DNA of 64,000 nucleotides from Pseudomonadota bacterium. Its GTDB lineage: Bacteria; Pseudomonadota; Gammaproteobacteria; UBA9214. A program made the translations under genes and the position numbers. The stretch spans positions 270,967-334,966 of the forward strand of contig JAWLAI010000007.1 of NCBI GenBank assembly GCA_041395565.1, in the 5' to 3' direction. The notes beneath the pieces are model-generated. The model saw only the letters and a program-made list of their open reading frames with translations. It did no database searches and was not told the DNA's origin. Below, piece by piece: positions 5,261 to 13,475 of the stretch (position 1 is its first letter; each line of letters starts with the position of its first letter).

Positions 5261-6634
5261 ATGCCCGCGCTGACGACTCCGACGGACTCTCCGCCCCCGG
5301 CACGCGACGTGTTCACCGTCGCGCGCCTGAACCTGGCGGCACGCACCCTGCTGGAACAGGGTTTCCCGCGCATCTGGATCGAGGGCGAGCTGTCCAACGT
5401 CTCCCGACCCGCCTCGGGGCACCTGTATTTCACCCTCAAGGACAGCCAGGCCCAAGTGCGCGGCGCCATGTTCCGCAACCGCAACCAGCTGCTGCGCTTC
5501 CGCCCGGAGGAAGGCATGCAGGTACTGGTACGGGCGAAGGTCAGCCTGTATGAACCCCGCGGCGACTACCAGCTGATCGCCGAGACGATGGAAGCGGCCG
5601 GCGACGGCGCGCTGCGGGCCGCCTTCGACGCGCTCAAGCACCGGCTCGAGCGCGAGGGCCTGTTCGACGCCGCACACAAGCAGCCGCTGCCGGCGCTGCC
5701 CGCCCGCATCGGCGTGATCACCTCGCCCACCGGCGCGGCATTGCGCGACGTGCTGAGCGTGCTGCGCCGGCGCTTTCCGGCCATTCCGGTCCTGGTGTAC
5801 CCGGTTCCCGTCCAGGGCCGCGAGGCCGGGCGCGAGATCGCCGCCATGCTGGCCAGCGCAGACCGCCGCAACGACTGTGACGTCCTCATACTGACCCGTG
5901 GCGGCGGCTCGCTCGAGGACCTGTGGGCCTTCAACGAGGAGGTCGTCGCCCGCGCCATCCATGCCTGTCACATCCCGGTCATCAGCGCCGTGGGACACGA
6001 AATCGACTTCACCATCGCCGACTTCGCGGCCGACCGACGCGCCCCGACGCCCTCGGCGGCGGCCGAACTGGTCAGTCCCGACCAGGCGGAGTGGCTGGCA
6101 CGGGCGGACGCCCTGCAGGCCCGCGCGGTCAGGCGCATGCAGGGCCAGCTCGAAGCCCGCCGCCGCCAGCTCGGCTGGCTCGAACAGCGCCTGGCCCTGC
6201 GCCATCCAGGCCAGATACTGCGCCGCCATGCCCAGCGCCTGGACGAGCTGGAGAGCCGCTCCCGCCTCACTATCCGCTCTTATTTCAGCAGATTGGATTC
6301 TTATGTTCATAAGTTGCATGCAGTTCTGCAACAACAGACCCCGCGCCACCGCATCCACCGCACCGAAGCGCTGCGCCAGGCCCTGGCCGCCCGTCTGCAG
6401 GTCGCCATCGACGCCGTGCTCGCGCACCGGCAGCGCCGCCTGGCACTGGCCTGCAAGGCACTCGACACCGTCAGCCCGCTGGCCACGCTGGAGCGCGGCT
6501 ATGCCATCGTCCGCCGCGCCGGCGCACGAGAGATCCTGCGCCGGGCCGCTGCTGTCCGGCCGGGCGAGCGGGTGACCGCGCGCCTCGCGCACGGCAGCCT
6601 GCAATGCACGGTCGACGCCGTCGAACCGGACTAG
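5261..6634 (+). CDS. xseA: exodeoxyribonuclease VII large subunit
   Basis: OB-fold N-terminus (FTVARLNLAARTLLEQGFPRIWIEGELSNV..GHLYFTLKD) and a long coiled-coil C-terminus; divergent from guaB as in E. coli; ATG at 5261 chosen (the ORF-track start at 5168 is an upstream extension). Confidence 0.9.
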   Translation: MPALTTPTDSPPPARDVFTVARLNLAARTLLEQGFPRIWIEGELSNVSRPASGHLYFTLKDSQAQVRGAMFRNRNQLLRFRPEEGMQVLVRAKVSLYEPRGDYQLIAETMEAAGDGALRAAFDALKHRLEREGLFDAAHKQPLPALPARIGVITSPTGAALRDVLSVLRRRFPAIPVLVYPVPVQGREAGREIAAMLASADRRNDCDVLILTRGGGSLEDLWAFNEEVVARAIHACHIPVISAVGHEIDFTIADFAADRRAPTPSAAAELVSPDQAEWLARADALQARAVRRMQGQLEARRRQLGWLEQRLALRHPGQILRRHAQRLDELESRSRLTIRSYFSRLDSYVHKLHAVLQQQTPRHRIHRTEALRQALAARLQVAIDAVLAHRQRRLALACKALDTVSPLATLERGYAIVRRAGAREILRRAAAVRPGERVTARLAHGSLQCTVDAVEPD

Positions 6635-6705
6635 CGCCGTCTTGGCGCGGCGGGAACCGCGCGTTAGAGTCAATCGCAGCACCGTCACGGGAGGAACCGA
6701 CCCAC

Positions 6706-7560
6706 ATGCCCAGCCGCCGCCTCGCAGCCCTGTTCGCCGCCCTCGCCTGCCACAGCCTGGCCCACGCCCTGCCGTCGGATACCACGCCCGTGCCCGGCGG
6801 CATCGCCGTCCTGCGCCTGCCCGCGGATGCGGATGCCGGCACGCTGCGCTACAACGGCCGCAAGGTGCTGGTGACCCGGCTCGAGGGCGCCGACCATGCC
6901 GTGATCGGGCTGGCGCTGGGAACCAAGCCCGGACGCTACCAGCTGCAGGGCAAGACCACGCAGGGCCAGGCATTCAAACTCGCCTTCGAGGTCGCGGCCA
7001 AGCAATACGAGGAACAGCGCATCACCATCAAGGACAAGCGCAAGGTGAACCCGGAACCACGCGACCTGGAACGCATCGGGCGCGAGAAGAAACAGATCGA
7101 TGCGGCGCTGGAGCACTGGTCCGACCGCGACGGGGTCGTGGTCGACTTCCACCCCCCGGTCGCGGGCCCGACCAGCAGCCCGTTCGGGCTGCGCCGCTAT
7201 TTCAACGACCAGCCACGCAGCCCGCACAGCGGCCTGGACATCGCCGCCGCCGAGGGCACGCCGATCCATGCCCCGGCCCCGGGCACCGTCATAGAGACCG
7301 GCGATTTCTTCTTCAACGGCAAGACGGTGCTGATCGACCACGGCCAGGGCCTGGTTACCATGTACTGCCACATGAGCAGCATCGACGTGACACCCGGCAC
7401 CACGCTCGCGACCGGCGCGGTCATCGGCAAGGTCGGGATGACCGGCCGCGTCACCGGTCCGCACCTGCACTGGGGCGTCAGCCTGAACGACGCGCGGATC
7501 GACCCGACGCTGTTCCTGGCGCCGGATTACACCGCGGATCCTGCGCCGGGCGGTGAATAA
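6706..7560 (+). CDS. M23-family (LytM-like) metallopeptidase, secreted
   Basis: Signal peptide MPSRRLAALFAALACHSLAHA; M23 motifs HSGLDIAA..GTPIHA, LIDHGQG..MYCHMS, GPHLHWGV; GGGAGGAA RBS before the ATG at 6706. Confidence 0.8.
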   Translation: MPSRRLAALFAALACHSLAHALPSDTTPVPGGIAVLRLPADADAGTLRYNGRKVLVTRLEGADHAVIGLALGTKPGRYQLQGKTTQGQAFKLAFEVAAKQYEEQRITIKDKRKVNPEPRDLERIGREKKQIDAALEHWSDRDGVVVDFHPPVAGPTSSPFGLRRYFNDQPRSPHSGLDIAAAEGTPIHAPAPGTVIETGDFFFNGKTVLIDHGQGLVTMYCHMSSIDVTPGTTLATGAVIGKVGMTGRVTGPHLHWGVSLNDARIDPTLFLAPDYTADPAPGGE

Positions 7561-7604
7561 GGCGGTCGCAGCGGTACGCCGGCAGCGCCGCATGCGGGCA
7601 CCGA

Positions 7605-7620
7605 CTTGACCGTGGTCAAG
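7605..7620. promoter_or_regulatory. perfect palindrome CTTGACC-g-TGGTCAAG upstream of the yceI-like gene (candidate operator)
   Basis: 7+1+7 palindrome read from the sequence, about 65 nt upstream of the yceI-like start. Confidence 0.25.
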
Positions 7621-7684
7621 TGCAACCAGCCGGCGCGGGCATAAGCTCTAGAAACATAATGCCTGTCCAGCACCGTCTCGCCGC

Positions 7685-8350
7685 ATGCAACTCACCCGCC
7701 TCATTCACCTGATCCTGACCGCGCTGCTGGCGCTGGCGGCCGGCAACGCCCGGGCTGCCGAACCCTGCACGCCCTTCGAAGGCGGGCGCGTGGACGCGAA
7801 ACTGCTCGCGGAGATGCGCGCGGCCGCGCACGAGGGACGGCTGTACCGGGTCGTGCCCGGACACTCGAAGGTGGGATTCTGCGTGCGCTACTTTCCGTTC
7901 CAGGAGTTCCGCGGCGAGTTCACCAACGTCGTCGGCGGACTGACGCTGCCGCCCGATACGGAGCGTCATGGCCAGGCCCTGCTGCTGATCCACACCACCG
8001 CCATGGAATCCAGCAATCCGGATCTCGATCCACTCGTCCAGGGCCACGAATTCATGGACGTCGAGCATTATCCCGAAATCCTGTACGTAGGCCGTGCCTT
8101 CCAGTGGTACAACCCGCTGCAGGCCTACATCTATGGCGACATCACCCTGCGCGGAATCACGCAACCCGTGGTGTTCAATATCGAGATCGACGCACCGGAG
8201 CGGGACGCGGAAGGCAATCCCGAAACCATCCATCTGCGCGGCACCAGCGAGGTCAACCGCACGCAATTCGACATGCGCACCCATCGCATCATGATCAGCG
8301 AGACCGTGCGACTGTGTCTGTCCGTGGAACTGGTACGCTGGGAGCCCTGA
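7685..8350 (+). CDS. YceI-like periplasmic polyisoprenoid-binding protein
   Basis: Signal peptide; YceI-family motifs (HSKVGFCVRYFPFQEFRGEF, GDITLRGITQPVVF, NRTQFDM). Confidence 0.8.
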   Translation: MQLTRLIHLILTALLALAAGNARAAEPCTPFEGGRVDAKLLAEMRAAAHEGRLYRVVPGHSKVGFCVRYFPFQEFRGEFTNVVGGLTLPPDTERHGQALLLIHTTAMESSNPDLDPLVQGHEFMDVEHYPEILYVGRAFQWYNPLQAYIYGDITLRGITQPVVFNIEIDAPERDAEGNPETIHLRGTSEVNRTQFDMRTHRIMISETVRLCLSVELVRWEP

Positions 8351-8375: not shown

Positions 8376-9491
8376 TCAGCGCGCGATCCGGACCGGGACG
8401 CGGCGCCCGCCGAAGGCGCCCTGGTAATCGCCGAAACGGCCGGCCAGCGCGGTGTTGCAGTCGGGACAACGGCCATCCGCACTCACCCGGTATTCCAGGA
8501 TGTCGTACCAATCGCGCACGATCAGCGCCCGGTGACAGCCGGGGCAGTAGGTGGTGCCGCCATCGCGGTCGTGCACGTTGCCGGTGTAGACGTAATGGAG
8601 GCCCGCCTCCAGCGCGATCCGGCGGGCGCGGGCGAGCGTCTCCGGCGGCGTGGCCGGCACGTCGCGCATGCGGAAATCGGGATGGAAGGCGGTGAAATGC
8701 AGCGGCACCTCCGGCCCCAGTTCCGCCATGATCCAGCGGCTCATGCGCCGGATCTCGTCGTCGCCGTCGTTATGGCCCGGGATCAGCAGCGTGGTGATTT
8801 CCGTCCAGACCTGTGTCTCGTGGTGCAGGTAGACCAGGGTGTCGAGCACCGGCTGCAGGTGGGCCCCGGTCAGCCGGTAGTAGAAGTCGTCGGTGAAGGC
8901 CTTGAGGTCCACGTTGGCCGCATCCATGACGGCGAAGAATTCGCGGCGCGGCTCGGGATGGATGTAGCCCGCCGTCACCGCGACGGTCTGGAGCCCCAGC
9001 GCATGGCAGGCCCTGGCCGTGTCGATGGCGTATTCGGCGAATATCACCGGGTCGTTGTAGGTGAATGCCACGCTCCTGCTGCCCGATTGCTGCGCCGCCT
9101 GCGCAATCGCCTCCGGGCTGGCCTGGTCCATGAGCCGGTCCATGTCCCGCGACTTGCTGATATCCCAGTTCTGGCAGAACTTGCAGGCCAGGTTGCAGCC
9201 GGCGGTGCCGAACGACAGCACTGCGGAGCCCGGGTAGAAATGGTTGAGCGGCTTCTTCTCGATCGGGTCGACGCAGAATCCGGACGAGCGGCCGTAGGTC
9301 GTGAGCACCATGCGCTCGCCCTCGCGCATGCGCACGAAGCAGGCGCCGCGCTGGCCCGCATGCAGCCTGCAGTCGCGCGGACACAGGTCGCACTGGATGC
9401 GACCGTCCGGCAGCGCGTGCCACCAGCGTGCCGGGTACAGCGCGGTTGCAGCGCTCGCCTTCATGCCGCCCCGCGCTCGGGTTCGCGCCAC
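8376..9491 (-). CDS. AmmeMemoRadiSam system radical SAM enzyme (amrS-type; pyruvate-formate-lyase-activase-like)
   Basis: 371 aa; CxxxCxxC cluster motif GCNLACKFCQNWDIS, a C-terminal extra Cys pair (CPGC, CPDC); third gene of the memo-ammecr1-rSAM operon. Confidence 0.85.
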   Translation of the reverse strand: MARTRARGGMKASAATALYPARWWHALPDGRIQCDLCPRDCRLHAGQRGACFVRMREGERMVLTTYGRSSGFCVDPIEKKPLNHFYPGSAVLSFGTAGCNLACKFCQNWDISKSRDMDRLMDQASPEAIAQAAQQSGSRSVAFTYNDPVIFAEYAIDTARACHALGLQTVAVTAGYIHPEPRREFFAVMDAANVDLKAFTDDFYYRLTGAHLQPVLDTLVYLHHETQVWTEITTLLIPGHNDGDDEIRRMSRWIMAELGPEVPLHFTAFHPDFRMRDVPATPPETLARARRIALEAGLHYVYTGNVHDRDGGTTYCPGCHRALIVRDWYDILEYRVSADGRCPDCNTALAGRFGDYQGAFGGRRVPVRIAR

Positions 9492-10057
9492 TTGCGCACG
9501 CGATAACGTGCCAGGCGGATACCGTCATCCCAGAAACCGGGCGGCAGTCCGGCCTTGCGCTTGAGCTGGGCCAGGAATTCCTCCGGGCTTGGCAGGGCAT
9601 CCCACACTTGCGGCAGAAAGGTGCCGCGGGCCTGGCCATAGGTCAGGACCACGCCGTCGACACCGGGACGCAGCCGGGCGATGGCATCGGCCTGCGAGGT
9701 GAACTCCATGGCCTCGGGCACGGACAGCAGCGAAACCTCGATGCACGTGGCATCCAGCTCCTGTACGCGCAAAGGCGGGAAACGCGGATCGCGCACGGCC
9801 GCGGCGACGGCATTCGCGCGCACGTCCTCCAGCAGCTGCCGGTAGGCCTCGAGACTGCCGATGCAGCCGCGCAGGTCGCCGTTCAGGGTCAGCGTCACGA
9901 AGCTAGCGCCCGGCTCCAGCAGCCAGGCGGCCGGCGTGTAGGCGACTCCCGCCGCGCCCAGGCGGCGCGCGATCGCGTCGCGCGCCACCGCCAGCAGCGT
10001 GGGATCGTCCGCCGCGGGCTGCAGCCCGGGCTCGGTCAATTCGGGCAACGGCTTCAT
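9461..10057 (-). CDS. AMMECR1-domain protein (AmmeMemoRadiSam system protein A)
   Basis: 198 aa; AMMECR1 signatures LRGCIGSL and RGTFLPQVW; overlaps neighbouring genes at both ends (operon). Confidence 0.85.
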   Translation of the reverse strand: MKPLPELTEPGLQPAADDPTLLAVARDAIARRLGAAGVAYTPAAWLLEPGASFVTLTLNGDLRGCIGSLEAYRQLLEDVRANAVAAAVRDPRFPPLRVQELDATCIEVSLLSVPEAMEFTSQADAIARLRPGVDGVVLTYGQARGTFLPQVWDALPSPEEFLAQLKRKAGLPPGFWDDGIRLARYRVRKWREPERGAA

Positions 10058-10863
10058 GCCGCCTTCGCCTCGTAGAAGGCGATCGCGCAGTAGCCGACCA
10101 CGCGCGCATGATCACCGGCGGTGTCACCCGAATTGCGCAGATCCAGCACCTCGGCCGTGAGACCGCGGTCGGCGGCGAAGGCCAGCAGGCCGTTGACCGG
10201 CGTGGCGCCACAGGCCTCGTCGTGGTCTATGTCCGCCCGCAGTTCCAGGATGCGCTGTACCGTCTCTTCATCCACGCGGCGTGCCGCCCGGTACGGCAGG
10301 TAATGCGAGAGATCGGAGCTGATCACGACCAGCGTCTCGGCACCGCCCCAGACGCGGTCCAGCACGGCAGCGACCTCCGCCTGGGTGGCATCGCCGACGG
10401 CCAGGGGCAGCAGGGTGAAATCGCCCAGCACGGTCTGCAGGAACGGCAGGTGCACTTCCAGCGAATGCTCCTGGGCGTGCACGGCATCGTTCACCGTCAC
10501 TGCCGGGAGCTTGCGCAGTGCCGCCATCGCCGCCGTGTCCAGCGGCACCTCGCCCAGGGGCGTGGTGAACGCGGTGGCTGCGGGCAACGCCAGGCCGCGC
10601 ACCGGTATCCGGTGCACCGGACCCAGCAGCACGACGCGGCGGATACGGCCGGCCAGCGGTGCCAGCCGGGCATAGGCGCTGGCGGCGACCGGTCCCGAAT
10701 AGACATACCCGGCATGGGGCACGATCAGGGCCTTGGGAGGACGCAGCGCGCCGCCGTCCGGCACCGCGGCGAGCAGCGCGCGCACCTGCGCGGACAGCTC
10801 GGAGCGGCTCGATGGATAGAACAGGCCCGCCACGGCAGGCGCACGCGATGAATTCATGGACAC
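10054..10863 (-). CDS. MEMO1-family protein (AmmeMemoRadiSam system protein B)
   Basis: 269 aa; Memo-like motifs (LIVPHAGYVYSG, VVLLGPVH, ISSDLSHY). Confidence 0.85.
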   Translation of the reverse strand: MSMNSSRAPAVAGLFYPSSRSELSAQVRALLAAVPDGGALRPPKALIVPHAGYVYSGPVAASAYARLAPLAGRIRRVVLLGPVHRIPVRGLALPAATAFTTPLGEVPLDTAAMAALRKLPAVTVNDAVHAQEHSLEVHLPFLQTVLGDFTLLPLAVGDATQAEVAAVLDRVWGGAETLVVISSDLSHYLPYRAARRVDEETVQRILELRADIDHDEACGATPVNGLLAFAADRGLTAEVLDLRNSGDTAGDHARVVGYCAIAFYEAKAA

Positions 10864-10951
10864 CTCGATCTCACTTACCTCTTACATGTGGCCGCGGCCG
10901 GCAAACACAAGCGCGGCCGGAGTGACAAATCGCCGCACCCGCCGGCGGGCT

Positions 10952-11449
10952 TCAGTCCGGCTGCCCCAGCGCGGCACGGTAGAGCGCGGCATCCGCGTCG
11001 CTGTAGCAGCAGGCGATGAGACGCTCGAAGCGCGACTCGTACTCGCGCAGCGCCGTCAGTGCGATGCGCGCTGCCTCCGCCCGCGGGAAACCGTACACGC
11101 CGGTACTGATGGCGGGAAAGGCGATACTGTGTACATCGTTCTGCAGTGCCAGCTCACAGCTGTTGCGGTAGCAGGCCCGCAGCAATGCCGCCTCGTAGTT
11201 CGTGCCGCCCTGCCATACGGGTCCGACGGTGTGGATCACGCGCCGCGCCGGCAGTCCGAAACCGGGGCTGATCTTGGCCTCGCCCGTACGGCAACCGCCC
11301 AGCGTCCGGCAGAACTGCGCAAGCAATGGGCCGGCCGCGCGGTGAATGGCGCCATCCACCCCGCCGCCCCCGAGCAGACTGCTGTTCGCCGCATTGACGA
11401 TCGCGTCGAGTGCGAGGGTGGTGATATCCGCGGTAACGATCTCGATCAC
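10952..11449 (-). CDS. ymdB: macro-domain protein (YmdB-like O-acetyl-ADP-ribose deacetylase)
   Basis: Near-identical core to E. coli YmdB: [48 protein letters not shown] start at 11449 inferred (gives [12 protein letters not shown]...); the ORF-track ATG at 11623 would overlap the divergent gene, so the start is uncertain. Confidence 0.7.
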
Positions 11450-11561
11450 GTCCGGTTGCCAGGGTTTGCGCTGCTGCGAGTATAGCAGCCCGGCGCGGAT
11501 TGCCTCTTCTTGCCGTTGCGTTATAGTGTTATGGCACGAACCGCGGGGGGACCGGAACGGG

Positions 11562-13055
11562 ATGCTGCCAAACTTGATCACGTTGTCGCGTGCTGCGCGC
11601 CTGGTCGGCGTCAAGCGCGGCACCCTGCAGAAACAGATCCAGCGTGGTGAACTGCGTACCTTCGAGGGCGAGCTGCTGCTGTCCGACCTGCTGCACGCCT
11701 ATCCGCAGACCGAAATCGAAGACAGCACCATGCTGGAACGGGTCGGCGCTATCAAGGAACAGGCCGTCAACAAGATCATCCGTGCGGAAGTGGACAAGCC
11801 GGATGTCGATACACTCTACGCGCGCGTGCTCTCGCTCGGCCGGGAACTGGCTGCGGCGCGCGCGCAGGCACGCCGCAGCGAGGGCCTGGTCGAAAGCCTG
11901 AAGCGGAAATTCGGCGAGCCAGCGGCCGGCGCGGCAGACGAGCGCACGCTGGCGGCAGCCTACACCGGCCTGCGCGACTGGTTCTTCCAGACGCTGGAGG
12001 CGGCCGAATCACCGGATGATTCCAGCGGTTTCTTCGCACGGGAGGCGTTTCTCAGGGTCATGGCTGCTCAGGTCAGAATCGTGCCCAGTGGGCACGAGTT
12101 TTTCATCGAGGGTTCCGATTCCCTGCTGGAGGCCGGGTTACGCGGCGGCCTGGCGCTCGATTACGGCTGCAGCAACGGCAACTGCGGCATGTGCAAATGC
12201 CGGGTGGTATCGGGCGAGGTCAAGAAGATAGCGCCGCATGACTACGCGCTCTCCGAAACGGAAAAGGGTCTCGGCTACATCCTCGCCTGCTCCTATACCG
12301 CGGTGACGGACGTGGTCCTGGAAGCCAACGAGGCACACGGCGCGGGCGACATCCCGCAACAGGAGATCGAGATCAGGATCAGGAAACTGGAACAGCCCGA
12401 TGACCGGGTGGTCATTCTGCATGCGAGAACCCCGCGCACCCGGCGCCTGCGCTTCCTCGCCGGCCAGTTCCTGACGCTCGGCCGCGACGACCTGCCGGCC
12501 CGCGAGTGCGCCATCGCCAGCTGCCCATGCGATGACATGAACCTGCAGTTCCATATTCCGGTCACGGCCGGCGACCCGTTCAGTGACTGGCTCGGCACGC
12601 TGAAGCCCAACGTCGGACTGACCATCCGCGGGCCAAACGGCGACTTCACGCTCGACGAGGATTCGCCGCGTTCGCTGGTATTCATCGCCGTCAACGCCGG
12701 CTTCGGCCCGGTGAAGAGCCTGATCGAGCATGCCATGGCCCTCGATATCGCCGAGACCATCGACCTGTTCTGGATCATCACACCCGGGAACAGTCATTAC
12801 CTGGGCAACCTGTGCCGGTCCTGGGACGATGCGCTCGACAATTTCACCTATCACCCGCTCGCGGCAAGCGCGACGCAGCCGGTCGAGACGCTGTTGCCCG
12901 CCATCCTGGGGCGACTGGAAGACGCCGGCAGCCGGGACTTTTACGTCTGCACGCCGTCGCCGCTGCTCGATGCGCTTGAGGGTTTCCTGCGCACCAGCGG
13001 CATCCCGGCGCCGCAGATCCGCATGGAACCGGTGCGCCAGGGCACGTCGACCTGA
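11562..13055 (+). CDS. fusion protein: N-terminal HTH (excisionase/MerR-like) + coiled-coil + 2Fe-2S plant-type ferredoxin domain + FNR-like FAD/NAD(P)-binding reductase domain
   Basis: 498 aa from ATG 11562. HTH-like [27 protein letters not shown]; Fer2 Cys pattern [16 protein letters not shown]...C; FAD-binding [25 protein letters not shown]; NAD-binding [16 protein letters not shown]; single continuous frame. Confidence 0.75.
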
Positions 13056-13097
13056 TCCCTGTCAGGCACCGCTTTTACTCGCAGACGCGGTCCGCGC

Positions 13098-13475
13098 CTA
13101 CTTGACGATCTTGAGAGAGGGACGTTTGCCGGATGGCGGTTCGCTTGGCGACGGGGAACTGCCACCATCGTGGTCACTGAACACCATGCCGCGACCGTTC
13201 TCCTTGGCGTAGATGGCCAGCACCGCGTCGACCGGCACATACACATCCGTCGCGATGCCGCCGAAACGCGCCCGGAAGGCGATGGCGTCGTTACCCAAGG
13301 TCAGGCCCTCGACGGCGGCCGGGCTGATATTGAGCACGATCTTGCCGTTCTGCCCGTGCTGGGCCGGGATATCGACCCCTTCACCCTCGATATCCACCAG
13401 CAGGTGCGGGGTCATTTCATTGTCCAGGATCCATTCGTGGATGGCACGGACAAGGTAGGGACGACTGCTGTTCAT
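13098..13475 (-). CDS. sspB: ClpXP protease specificity-enhancing factor SspB
   Basis: 125 aa; MNSSRPYLVRAIHEWILDNEMTPHLLVD...ARFGGIATDVYVPVDAVLAIYAKENG; C-terminal KRPSLKIVK ClpX-binding tail. Confidence 0.9.
   Translation of the reverse strand: MNSSRPYLVRAIHEWILDNEMTPHLLVDIEGEGVDIPAQHGQNGKIVLNISPAAVEGLTLGNDAIAFRARFGGIATDVYVPVDAVLAIYAKENGRGMVFSDHDGGSSPSPSEPPSGKRPSLKIVK

Follow-up and report, generated by a model that had tools for sequence, protein, structure and literature searches.

A 64,000-nucleotide (nt) stretch of a Pseudomonadota genome (contig JAWLAI010000007.1, positions 270,967 to 334,966; "the window" in the following) contains a gene, here called X, whose product combines a helix-turn-helix (HTH) head, a helical region, a plant-type [2Fe-2S] ferredoxin domain and an FNR-like module in a single polypeptide (11562..13055, + strand). 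Our preferred reading, which we hold with slightly less than even confidence, is that X represents an undescribed family of cytoplasmic iron-sulfur (Fe-S) signalling proteins, most likely transcription regulators, that would have been built on the scaffold of an oxygenase reductase of the BenC/T4moF type. This function is deduced from comparisons of sequences, predicted structures and gene neighbourhoods. It is favoured because the flavin site and an oxygenase partner are missing, the HTH head is the most conserved part of the protein, the gene belongs to a two-component operon in one clade, and dsr, dsrC or siroheme-synthesis genes recur as neighbours.

To our knowledge, the question of how the dsr genes are switched on and off in sulfur-oxidising bacteria is still unresolved. 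The X family is a concrete candidate for a dsr regulator, and its occurrence in the cultured species Sulfuricella denitrificans skB26 makes it accessible to genetic tests. If the reading is true, X would exemplify the recruitment of an enzyme scaffold, i.e. that of an oxygenase reductase, as a sensory module, and it would widen the small set of regulators based on Fe-S clusters by a new architecture. We rate X as a combination of known kinds of proteins, i.e. Fe-S regulators and ferredoxin-FNR proteins, in a new form.

Architecture and conservation of the X family

X is a single open reading frame (ORF) of 497 codons on the + strand of the window, from the ATG at 11562 to the TGA at 13053-13055. 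A first-pass annotation of the window had proposed that an HTH, a coiled coil, a ferredoxin and an FNR-type reductase are encoded in one frame. The joint HTH-ferredoxin-FNR architecture was borne out by more than 300 full-length homologues that have retained it. Among the matches listed from a search of 5.8 billion proteins, at least 120 clusters had at least 65% identity and 98-100% coverage, and almost all of these proteins are 490-500 amino acids (aa) long. A scan with one genome per species yielded 154 stretches that encode a relative. The best 80 of the 154 were retained; their identities go down to 47%, nearly all are aligned from residue 1-6 to beyond residue 485, and they stem from metagenome-assembled genomes (MAGs) of Gammaproteobacteria, from Acidiferrobacterales and from Sulfuricella. 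A metagenome scan added more than 538 further stretches. Cultured carriers include Sulfuricella denitrificans skB26, whose complete genome (AP013066.1) encodes the homologue within 2095219-2110712, and Sulfuricella sp. T08.

For comparison, the N-terminal 172 residues alone were searched exhaustively against 1.84 billion representatives of 50% identity clusters. This yielded 338 clusters, 177 of them at E <=1e-10. The proteins are mostly ~480-505 aa long and carry the module at residues 1-170, showing that it is almost exclusive to the ~495-aa context; the shorter matches are truncated copies of the same architecture. These results bear on the possibility that the fusion is an artefact, i.e. 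that a small HTH gene and a ferredoxin-FNR gene were joined through a frameshift, an overlooked stop or the assembly of a chimera. Two observations would be compatible with it: one 179-kb MAG contig encodes X in two pieces (P0278, 107 aa, and P0279, 358 aa), and one gene call (P0243) joins an oligopeptide ABC ATPase to the N-terminal module. Both look like sequencing or gene-calling errors, not like alternative architectures. More than 300 full-length proteins, which stem from independent assemblies, and the complete S. denitrificans skB26 genome show the architecture without interruption, and the N-terminal module is essentially never found alone. An artefact is therefore extremely improbable, and we rejected it as refuted by the comparative data; a split of the gene in related genomes, which had been raised as a possible sign of such an artefact, is not the rule.

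The structure of X was predicted with AlphaFold from an alignment of 65 diverse sequences with 36-67% identity (predicted local distance difference test, pLDDT, 88; predicted template modelling score, pTM, 0.80). Residues 5-46 (11574..11699, + strand) are predicted to form a winged HTH of the excisionase/MerR (HTH_17) type with pLDDT values of 74-91, so that the N-terminus would adopt a DNA-binding-type fold. The predicted topology is beta-alpha-alpha-beta-beta-alpha, with a strand at 5-7, helices at 8-15 and 19-27, strands at 32-33 and 37-39, and a helix at 40-46. An excisionase/MerR-like HTH had been suggested by the first-pass annotation. The window protein itself matches HTH_17 (PF12728) at residues 6-33 only below the threshold (E 0.028), and the assignment gains support from the AlphaFold fold, from Foldseek and from the wider family, in which 33 of 49 diverse members match HTH_17 at E <0.1 (best E 2e-05) and 28 of 49 match HTH_8. 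The only Foldseek matches of the right size were small MerR-like, HTH/excisionase and PrtN phage proteins among the viral structures of BFVD (53-64 aligned columns, template modelling scores of 0.55-0.73, probabilities of 0.96-1.0). A profile search of the N-terminal module against the PDB sequences returned nothing but chance coiled-coil matches.

The head of X shares the pattern L-S-x-x-x-A-A-x-L-x-G-V-x-R-x-x-L-x-x-x-I-x-x-G-x-L and the predicted beta-alpha-alpha-beta-beta core with Xis, AlpA, PrtN and MerR-like phage HTH proteins. It differs from the excisionase/HTH_17 proteins in that X is not a small stand-alone protein and in that all matches stay below the curated thresholds. The HTH has four invariant residues, A12, R19, Q23 and G36; two of them, R19 and Q23, belong to the predicted second helix (19-27).

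Residues 47-81 form a low-confidence segment (pLDDT mostly ~50) between the HTH and two predicted amphipathic helices at residues 82-118 and 127-148 (11805..12005, + strand). Both helices have a hydrophobic periodicity of 3.4-3.7 residues, with p ~0.009 for the first and p 0.0005 for the second in comparison with shuffled sequences; the periodicity of a further predicted helix at 155-167 is not significant. The model thus points to a possible dimerisation, packing or linker module. The stretch that had been annotated as a coiled coil does lie within the predicted amphipathic helix of 37 residues at 82-118; a coiled coil as such is not proven. The extension at the N-terminus, which had been put at about 205 residues, is likewise real, and its length is about 170 residues, residue 203 being the first cysteine of the Fe-S cluster.

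The ferredoxin domain comprises residues 168-255 (12063..12326, + strand) and is of the plant-type [2Fe-2S] class, with a match to Pfam Fer2 at residues 175-245 (E 1.4e-12) and pLDDT values mostly above 92. The cluster ligands C203, C208, C211 and C243 (codons at 12168, 12183, 12192 and 12288) are invariant in 65 diverse representatives of the family, and the pattern C-X4-C-X2-C-X25-35-C is found in 313 of 315 full-length homologues.

The FNR-like module in comparison with known systems

The C-terminal part of X, residues ~267-490, is predicted with high confidence (pLDDT >90 in all but three 10-residue blocks). Its first half, residues 267-362 (12360..12647, + strand), is a beta-barrel of the FAD-binding type of the FNR fold, as deduced from profile alignments to T4moF, BenC and GcoB. 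The barrel ends in a conserved G-P-x-G-x-F, and the match to Pfam FAD_binding_6 is weak (residues 283-362, E 0.015). The flavin motif R-x-Y-S corresponds to positions 314, 316 and 317 in the profile alignments to BenC and GcoB, and the window protein has R-E-C-A at this site. Among the 65 representatives, the R is present in 7, the Y in 17 and the S in 11, and they never occur together. None of the 313 full-length homologues with the family motif described below contains R-x-[YFW]-[ST], and x-x-[YFW]-[ST] is present in just 15. Conservation is also poor for the basic residue (Arg/Lys) of the strand that follows and for the G-x-x-S motif.

Directly after the position of the missing R-x-Y-S, X has a motif that is typical of the family, A-S-C321-P-C323-D-D-x-N-L-x-F-H331 (12516..12554, + strand). 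Its consensus, (I/V/L)-A-S-C321-P-C323-(D/E)-x-x-x-L-x-F-H331, was found in 313 of 315 full-length homologues. All 65 representatives have both cysteines, and 56 of them have H331.

The second half of the module, residues 368-490 (12663..13031, + strand), was assigned to the NAD(P)H-binding type of Rossmann domain of the FNR fold by NCBIfam, profile and AlphaFold comparisons. Its GGTGxxP motif is degenerate: the window protein has V-N-A-G-F-G-P, and the family has x-x-G-F-A-P-(I/V)-K-S-L-(I/V)-E-H-A. The C-G-P motif is mostly replaced by A-G-P in the family and reads C-T-P in the window protein. The Rossmann domain contains two family-specific blocks of 11 and 13 residues. Another cysteine, C418, belongs to the block N-L-C-R-(A/S)-W-x-D-A-L-D-N-F and was found in 58 of 65 representatives.

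Given the absence of R-x-[YFW]-[ST], the lack of conservation of the subsequent Arg/Lys and the replacement of GGTGxxP, a canonical FNR activity of X is unlikely. The motifs suggest that the FNR-like module has a derived, non-canonical fold that is probably flavin-free. The earlier description of X as a flavo-iron-sulfur protein that couples NAD(P)H to transcription does not agree with the absence of R-x-[YFW]-[ST] from all 313 homologues and with the change of GGTGxxP to x-x-G-F-A-P.

X has the same domain order, i.e. ferredoxin, FAD-type barrel and NAD-type Rossmann domain, as BenC (1KRH), T4moF (4WQM), CarAd (7C3A), GcoB (5OGX) and MmoC. With the class IB/III oxygenase reductases of the BenC type it shares the four cluster cysteines and G-P-x-G-x-F, and the predicted fold was matched by Foldseek to T4moF (4WQM, E 1.8e-24) and BenC (1KRH, E 6.3e-23) as well as to CarAd and GcoB. 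X differs from the BenC/T4moF type by the additional 170-residue N-terminus with its HTH and helices, by the lack of R-x-Y-S, the degenerate GGTGxxP and the new A-S-C-P-C...F-H motif, and by the lack of a nearby oxygenase partner. The NCBIfam models for BenC, MmoC, AntC and related ferredoxin-FNR proteins match residues 180-490 of X with scores far below their cut-offs (111.9 bits versus 430 for BenC and 88 versus 500 for MmoC).

Family members are labelled in the databases as "2Fe-2S iron-sulfur cluster-binding protein", "ferredoxin" or, in many JGI records, "CDP-4-dehydro-6-deoxyglucose reductase". The enzyme of the last name (AscD/E3) is an iron-sulfur flavoprotein of the ferredoxin-FNR type, to which X also belongs, and the name has been transferred by automatic pipelines. 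X differs from AscD in that it has no flavin motif, no deoxysugar genes nearby and an additional HTH module. We therefore rejected this label, which is almost certainly a mis-annotation. The family thus exposes a systematic error in public databases, where its members are named after this reductase or just "ferredoxin".

A second type of protein that invites comparison is the MerR family of Fe-S sensors. SoxR has an N-terminal MerR-type winged HTH and a long helix, and its [2Fe-2S] cluster is held by a short C-terminal loop (C-X2-C-X-C-X5-C). By analogy, X would likewise have an N-terminal winged HTH, a long helix and a [2Fe-2S] cluster that is likely to be a redox sensor. X differs from SoxR in that its cluster resides in a whole ferredoxin domain, which is followed by an FNR-like body. 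The MerR-family redox sensors carry an antiparallel coiled-coil dimerisation helix immediately after the HTH; in X, the low-confidence segment of ~35 residues (47-81) lies between the HTH and the long amphipathic helix at 82-118.

No curated model in Pfam or NCBIfam covers the X family, and the window protein has no exact-sequence record. No description of the family was found in the full-text literature, a coverage outside which most subscription journals lie, so that an earlier description is possible. Within this scope, the former statement that X does not belong to a described family holds.

Gene neighbourhoods and functional readings

In the window and the 41 closest loci, which together form the window clade, a divergent macro-domain gene lies upstream of X. 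Downstream of X in this clade, the convergent genes sspB-sspA-petC-petB-petA are followed by NIF3, a degP-like gene, hisCDG and murA. X looks monocistronic here, with its own promoter in a housekeeping region, and no integrase or mobile element was found near X in the window-clade loci.

The neighbourhoods outside the window clade are of a different kind. Of 126 such loci, 51 contain a Dsr gene, 17 contain cysG/DUF4202, and 59 contain either; when only loci with at least 6 kb of flanking sequence are considered, genes of either kind occur in 49 of 84. Owing to the phylogenetic relatedness of the loci, these counts do not represent independent events. The dsr cluster is estimated to occupy well under 1% of such genomes. 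The 59 of 126 loci, the small share of dsr in the genome and the presence of at least five recurring arrangements argue for a functional connection between the X family and sulfur oxidation by the Dsr system. The neighbourhoods that were annotated contained no gene for an oxygenase partner.

The first arrangement, found in 23 species loci, consists of dsrL-J-O-P-N, the IscA-like dsrR, a NarX/Q-like histidine kinase, X and a NarL-like response regulator, often with soxB nearby. In one of these loci (L055), only 4 nt separate the stop codon of the kinase gene from the start codon of X. The translation of the kinase shows two membrane helices that are joined by a short loop, no Pfam sensor domain was matched, and the response regulator has its own GerE HTH. 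In L055 (kinase at 6326-7984), the external loop between the helices is very short, and ~200 residues that precede HisKA_3 match no family.

In the second arrangement, which is typical of Sulfuricella and includes strain skB26, a dsrC/tusE-like gene lies divergently upstream and is followed by an SseB-like gene, X, an 83-aa ORF and a gene for a GAF-GGDEF protein. The third has the order dsrLJOPN-DUF4202-cysG-X-297 aa-ankyrin-75 aa-143 aa-(GBBH-like)-Mrp. In further variants, dsrC adjoins X in the same orientation (L107, L153), cysG and X are divergent (L145, L149, L158), or the 75-aa ORF follows 6-21 nt after X and dsrC is ~4 kb away. Other contexts of X include glnD|X-rpoZ-spoT, described below, and unrelated genes.

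In several clades, X directly follows dsrN/dsrR, a position that resembles that of the accessory or regulatory genes for DsrR and DsrS of Allochromatium vinosum, which occupy the 3' end of dsr operons. X itself is a 55-kDa protein with an HTH, a ferredoxin and an FNR-like module, whereas DsrR is small and IscA-like. According to a passage in PMC11406059, which cites Grimm et al. 2010, DsrR takes part in regulating the oxidation of sulfur. Term searches of the dsr literature that was covered, including a 2024 paper on dsr evolution, gave no hit for X. Because the gene adjoins dsr, dsrC or siroheme-synthesis genes in many lineages, and kinase and regulator genes in one clade, the ancestral role of the X family was probably the control of Dsr-based sulfur oxidation.

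On the preferred reading, the [2Fe-2S] cluster, and possibly also the C-P-C dithiol, would sense the cell's redox state or that of its sulfur carriers, and the FNR-like body would serve as a sensory or partner-binding module instead of acting as an NAD(P)H:flavin reductase. The signal would travel via the helical linker to the HTH, which would bind DNA or a conserved partner. We infer these steps from sensing to output; a coupling of redox state to transcription via X, as the first-pass annotation had suggested, is plausible. The reading can be taken further, to a new class of sulfur- or redox-sensing transcription factors that have lost the flavin and in which the [2Fe-2S] cluster and the C-P-C dithiol read the DsrC/persulfide relay or the electron-carrier pool. 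X would then be the regulator of sulfur oxidation by the reverse Dsr pathway, either by itself or jointly with a two-component system of the NarXL type, and its dithiol might take up a persulfide or trisulfide, or hold a second metal site. We regard this extended version as possible and rather doubtful.

Several results weigh against a regulatory function of X in general or in the window clade. The window protein reaches 15-17 bits against cut-offs of 27 for HTH_17/excisionase-type models (PF12728, TIGR01764), the HTH matches of all family members are below the Pfam gathering score, and the E values of the structural matches in BFVD are weak (0.05-0.19). No operator-like dyad was detected in the intergenic DNA at 11450-11561 or in its counterparts at other loci, and no perfect dyad is shared by the regions upstream of X, the regions upstream of the kinase gene and the dsrC-sseB spacer. 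A Dsr gene is a neighbour in 0 of 42 window-clade loci, as is cysG/DUF4202, and no homologues of dsr, sox, kinase or regulator genes were found within the 64-kb window, so that applying the dsr link to the window protein is an extrapolation. Furthermore, the FNR-like module is strongly conserved, with G-P-x-G-x-F and part of the NAD motif retained, and the Sulfuricella branch still matches Pfam NAD_binding_1, next to FAD_binding_6, which leaves room for a non-canonical cofactor or catalytic role of the module.

The latter results would fit a working reductase that depends on NAD(P)H, has a flavin site of a non-canonical kind and serves the Dsr/siroheme system, e.g. DsrAB, DsrC or siroheme maturation, and in which the N-terminal module has a docking or autoregulatory role. 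The family profile matches T4moF and BenC with E values of 8.5e-40 and 2.6e-37, respectively, the Foldseek E value is ~1e-24, the G-P-x-G-x-F and x-x-G-F-A-P motifs are conserved, both Pfam domains are recognised in the Sulfuricella branch, and cofactor-biosynthesis genes (cysG, dsrN) are among the neighbours. Nevertheless, we consider a reductase unlikely: none of the 313 homologues has R-x-[YFW]-[ST], the basic residue of the strand after it and G-x-x-S show poor conservation, the HTH exceeds all other parts of the protein in conservation, X is placed between a kinase and a response regulator in one clade, and the window clade has no metabolic partner nearby.

The placement between kinase and response regulator is also the starting point for a different explanation, according to which X is an accessory sensor of a two-component system that does not bind DNA itself. 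The partner of its HTH-like head would be the kinase, the response regulator or RNA polymerase, and phosphotransfer would be modulated by the Fe-S cluster. The kinase-X-response regulator operon of the 23 species loci with its gap of 4 nt between kinase and X, the kinase with its short inter-helix loop and no Pfam sensor domain, the GerE HTH that the response regulator itself supplies, and the failure to detect an operator are all in line with such a role. However, we consider an accessory sensor unlikely as well: most members of the family, including the window protein, have no adjoining kinase or regulator gene, and the predicted recognition helix contains the invariant R19 and Q23, where residues that contact bases would be expected.

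Promoter region and further observations

A sigma-70-like promoter, TTGCCT-16 nt-TATAGT (11500..11527, + strand), is located ~35 nt upstream of the start codon of X. It is the sole promoter-like site within 11350-13250, with 0.2 sites expected by chance, and an alignment of upstream regions revealed that its -10 block is retained across ~40 related loci. MerR-type operators have a dyad within a spacer of 19-20 bp; the promoter of X differs in that its spacer has 16 nt and no conserved dyad. The frame of X is open upstream of the ATG as far as 11346, but a longer version of the gene starting there was rejected: the homologues begin at the methionine encoded at 11562, with M-(L)-P-x-L-I-T-L-S, and the DNA upstream of 11562 consists of the promoter and an overlap with the divergent macro-domain gene.

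The start codon of the macro-domain gene is most likely the GTG at 11447-11449 on the - strand. A conserved block, (C/G)AGTATAG at 11478-11485, lies in the intergenic region and reads TATACT on the minus strand, ~30 nt upstream of the start of the macro-domain gene. It is probably the -10 element of this gene, so that the 112-bp spacer would contain divergent promoters.

Within X, at the junction of the N-terminal module and the ferredoxin domain, a terminator-like hairpin with a T-run is present at 12079-12097 (+ strand). We judged it to be a by-product of coding: it arises from the codons for I-V-P-S-G-H-E-F-F, with the variant (I/L)-P-S-G-H-E-F-F, relatives retain no more than a core of 5 bp, and distant loci have lost it. 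An Rfam scan of 10800-13400 gave no match.

Two small ORFs that match no family accompany X in two of the arrangements; one has 75 aa and no cysteine, the other has 143 aa and several cysteines. They are found at 8912-9580 in L082 and just downstream of X in L155, L160, L162, L164, L165 and L166, and neither is present in the window. They may encode partners of X.

Some contigs with X that are titled Halobacteria archaeon or Haliangium have proteobacterial synteny, i.e. macro|X|sspB-sspA-petCB (L010, L014, L039) or the dsr/kinase context (L066), and two further contigs with X are titled Polaribacter (L068) and Nitrospiraceae (L078). All six have probably been mis-binned.

A distant member of the family is encoded on a 1.17-Mb contig (L081, 8001-11961), where glnD lies divergently before X, and rpoZ and spoT follow X after a gap of 30 nt. 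This order, glnD|X-rpoZ-spoT, and the sspA-sspB genes beside X in the window represent two neighbourhoods that are related to the stringent response, which may be a coincidence. On the other side of X in the window, the macro-domain gene (10952-11449, - strand) follows three genes on the same strand, a radical-SAM gene (8376-9491), AMMECR1 (9461-10057) and MEMO (10054-10863), which form a triad of the AmmeMemoRadiSam type that is retained only in the closest relatives.

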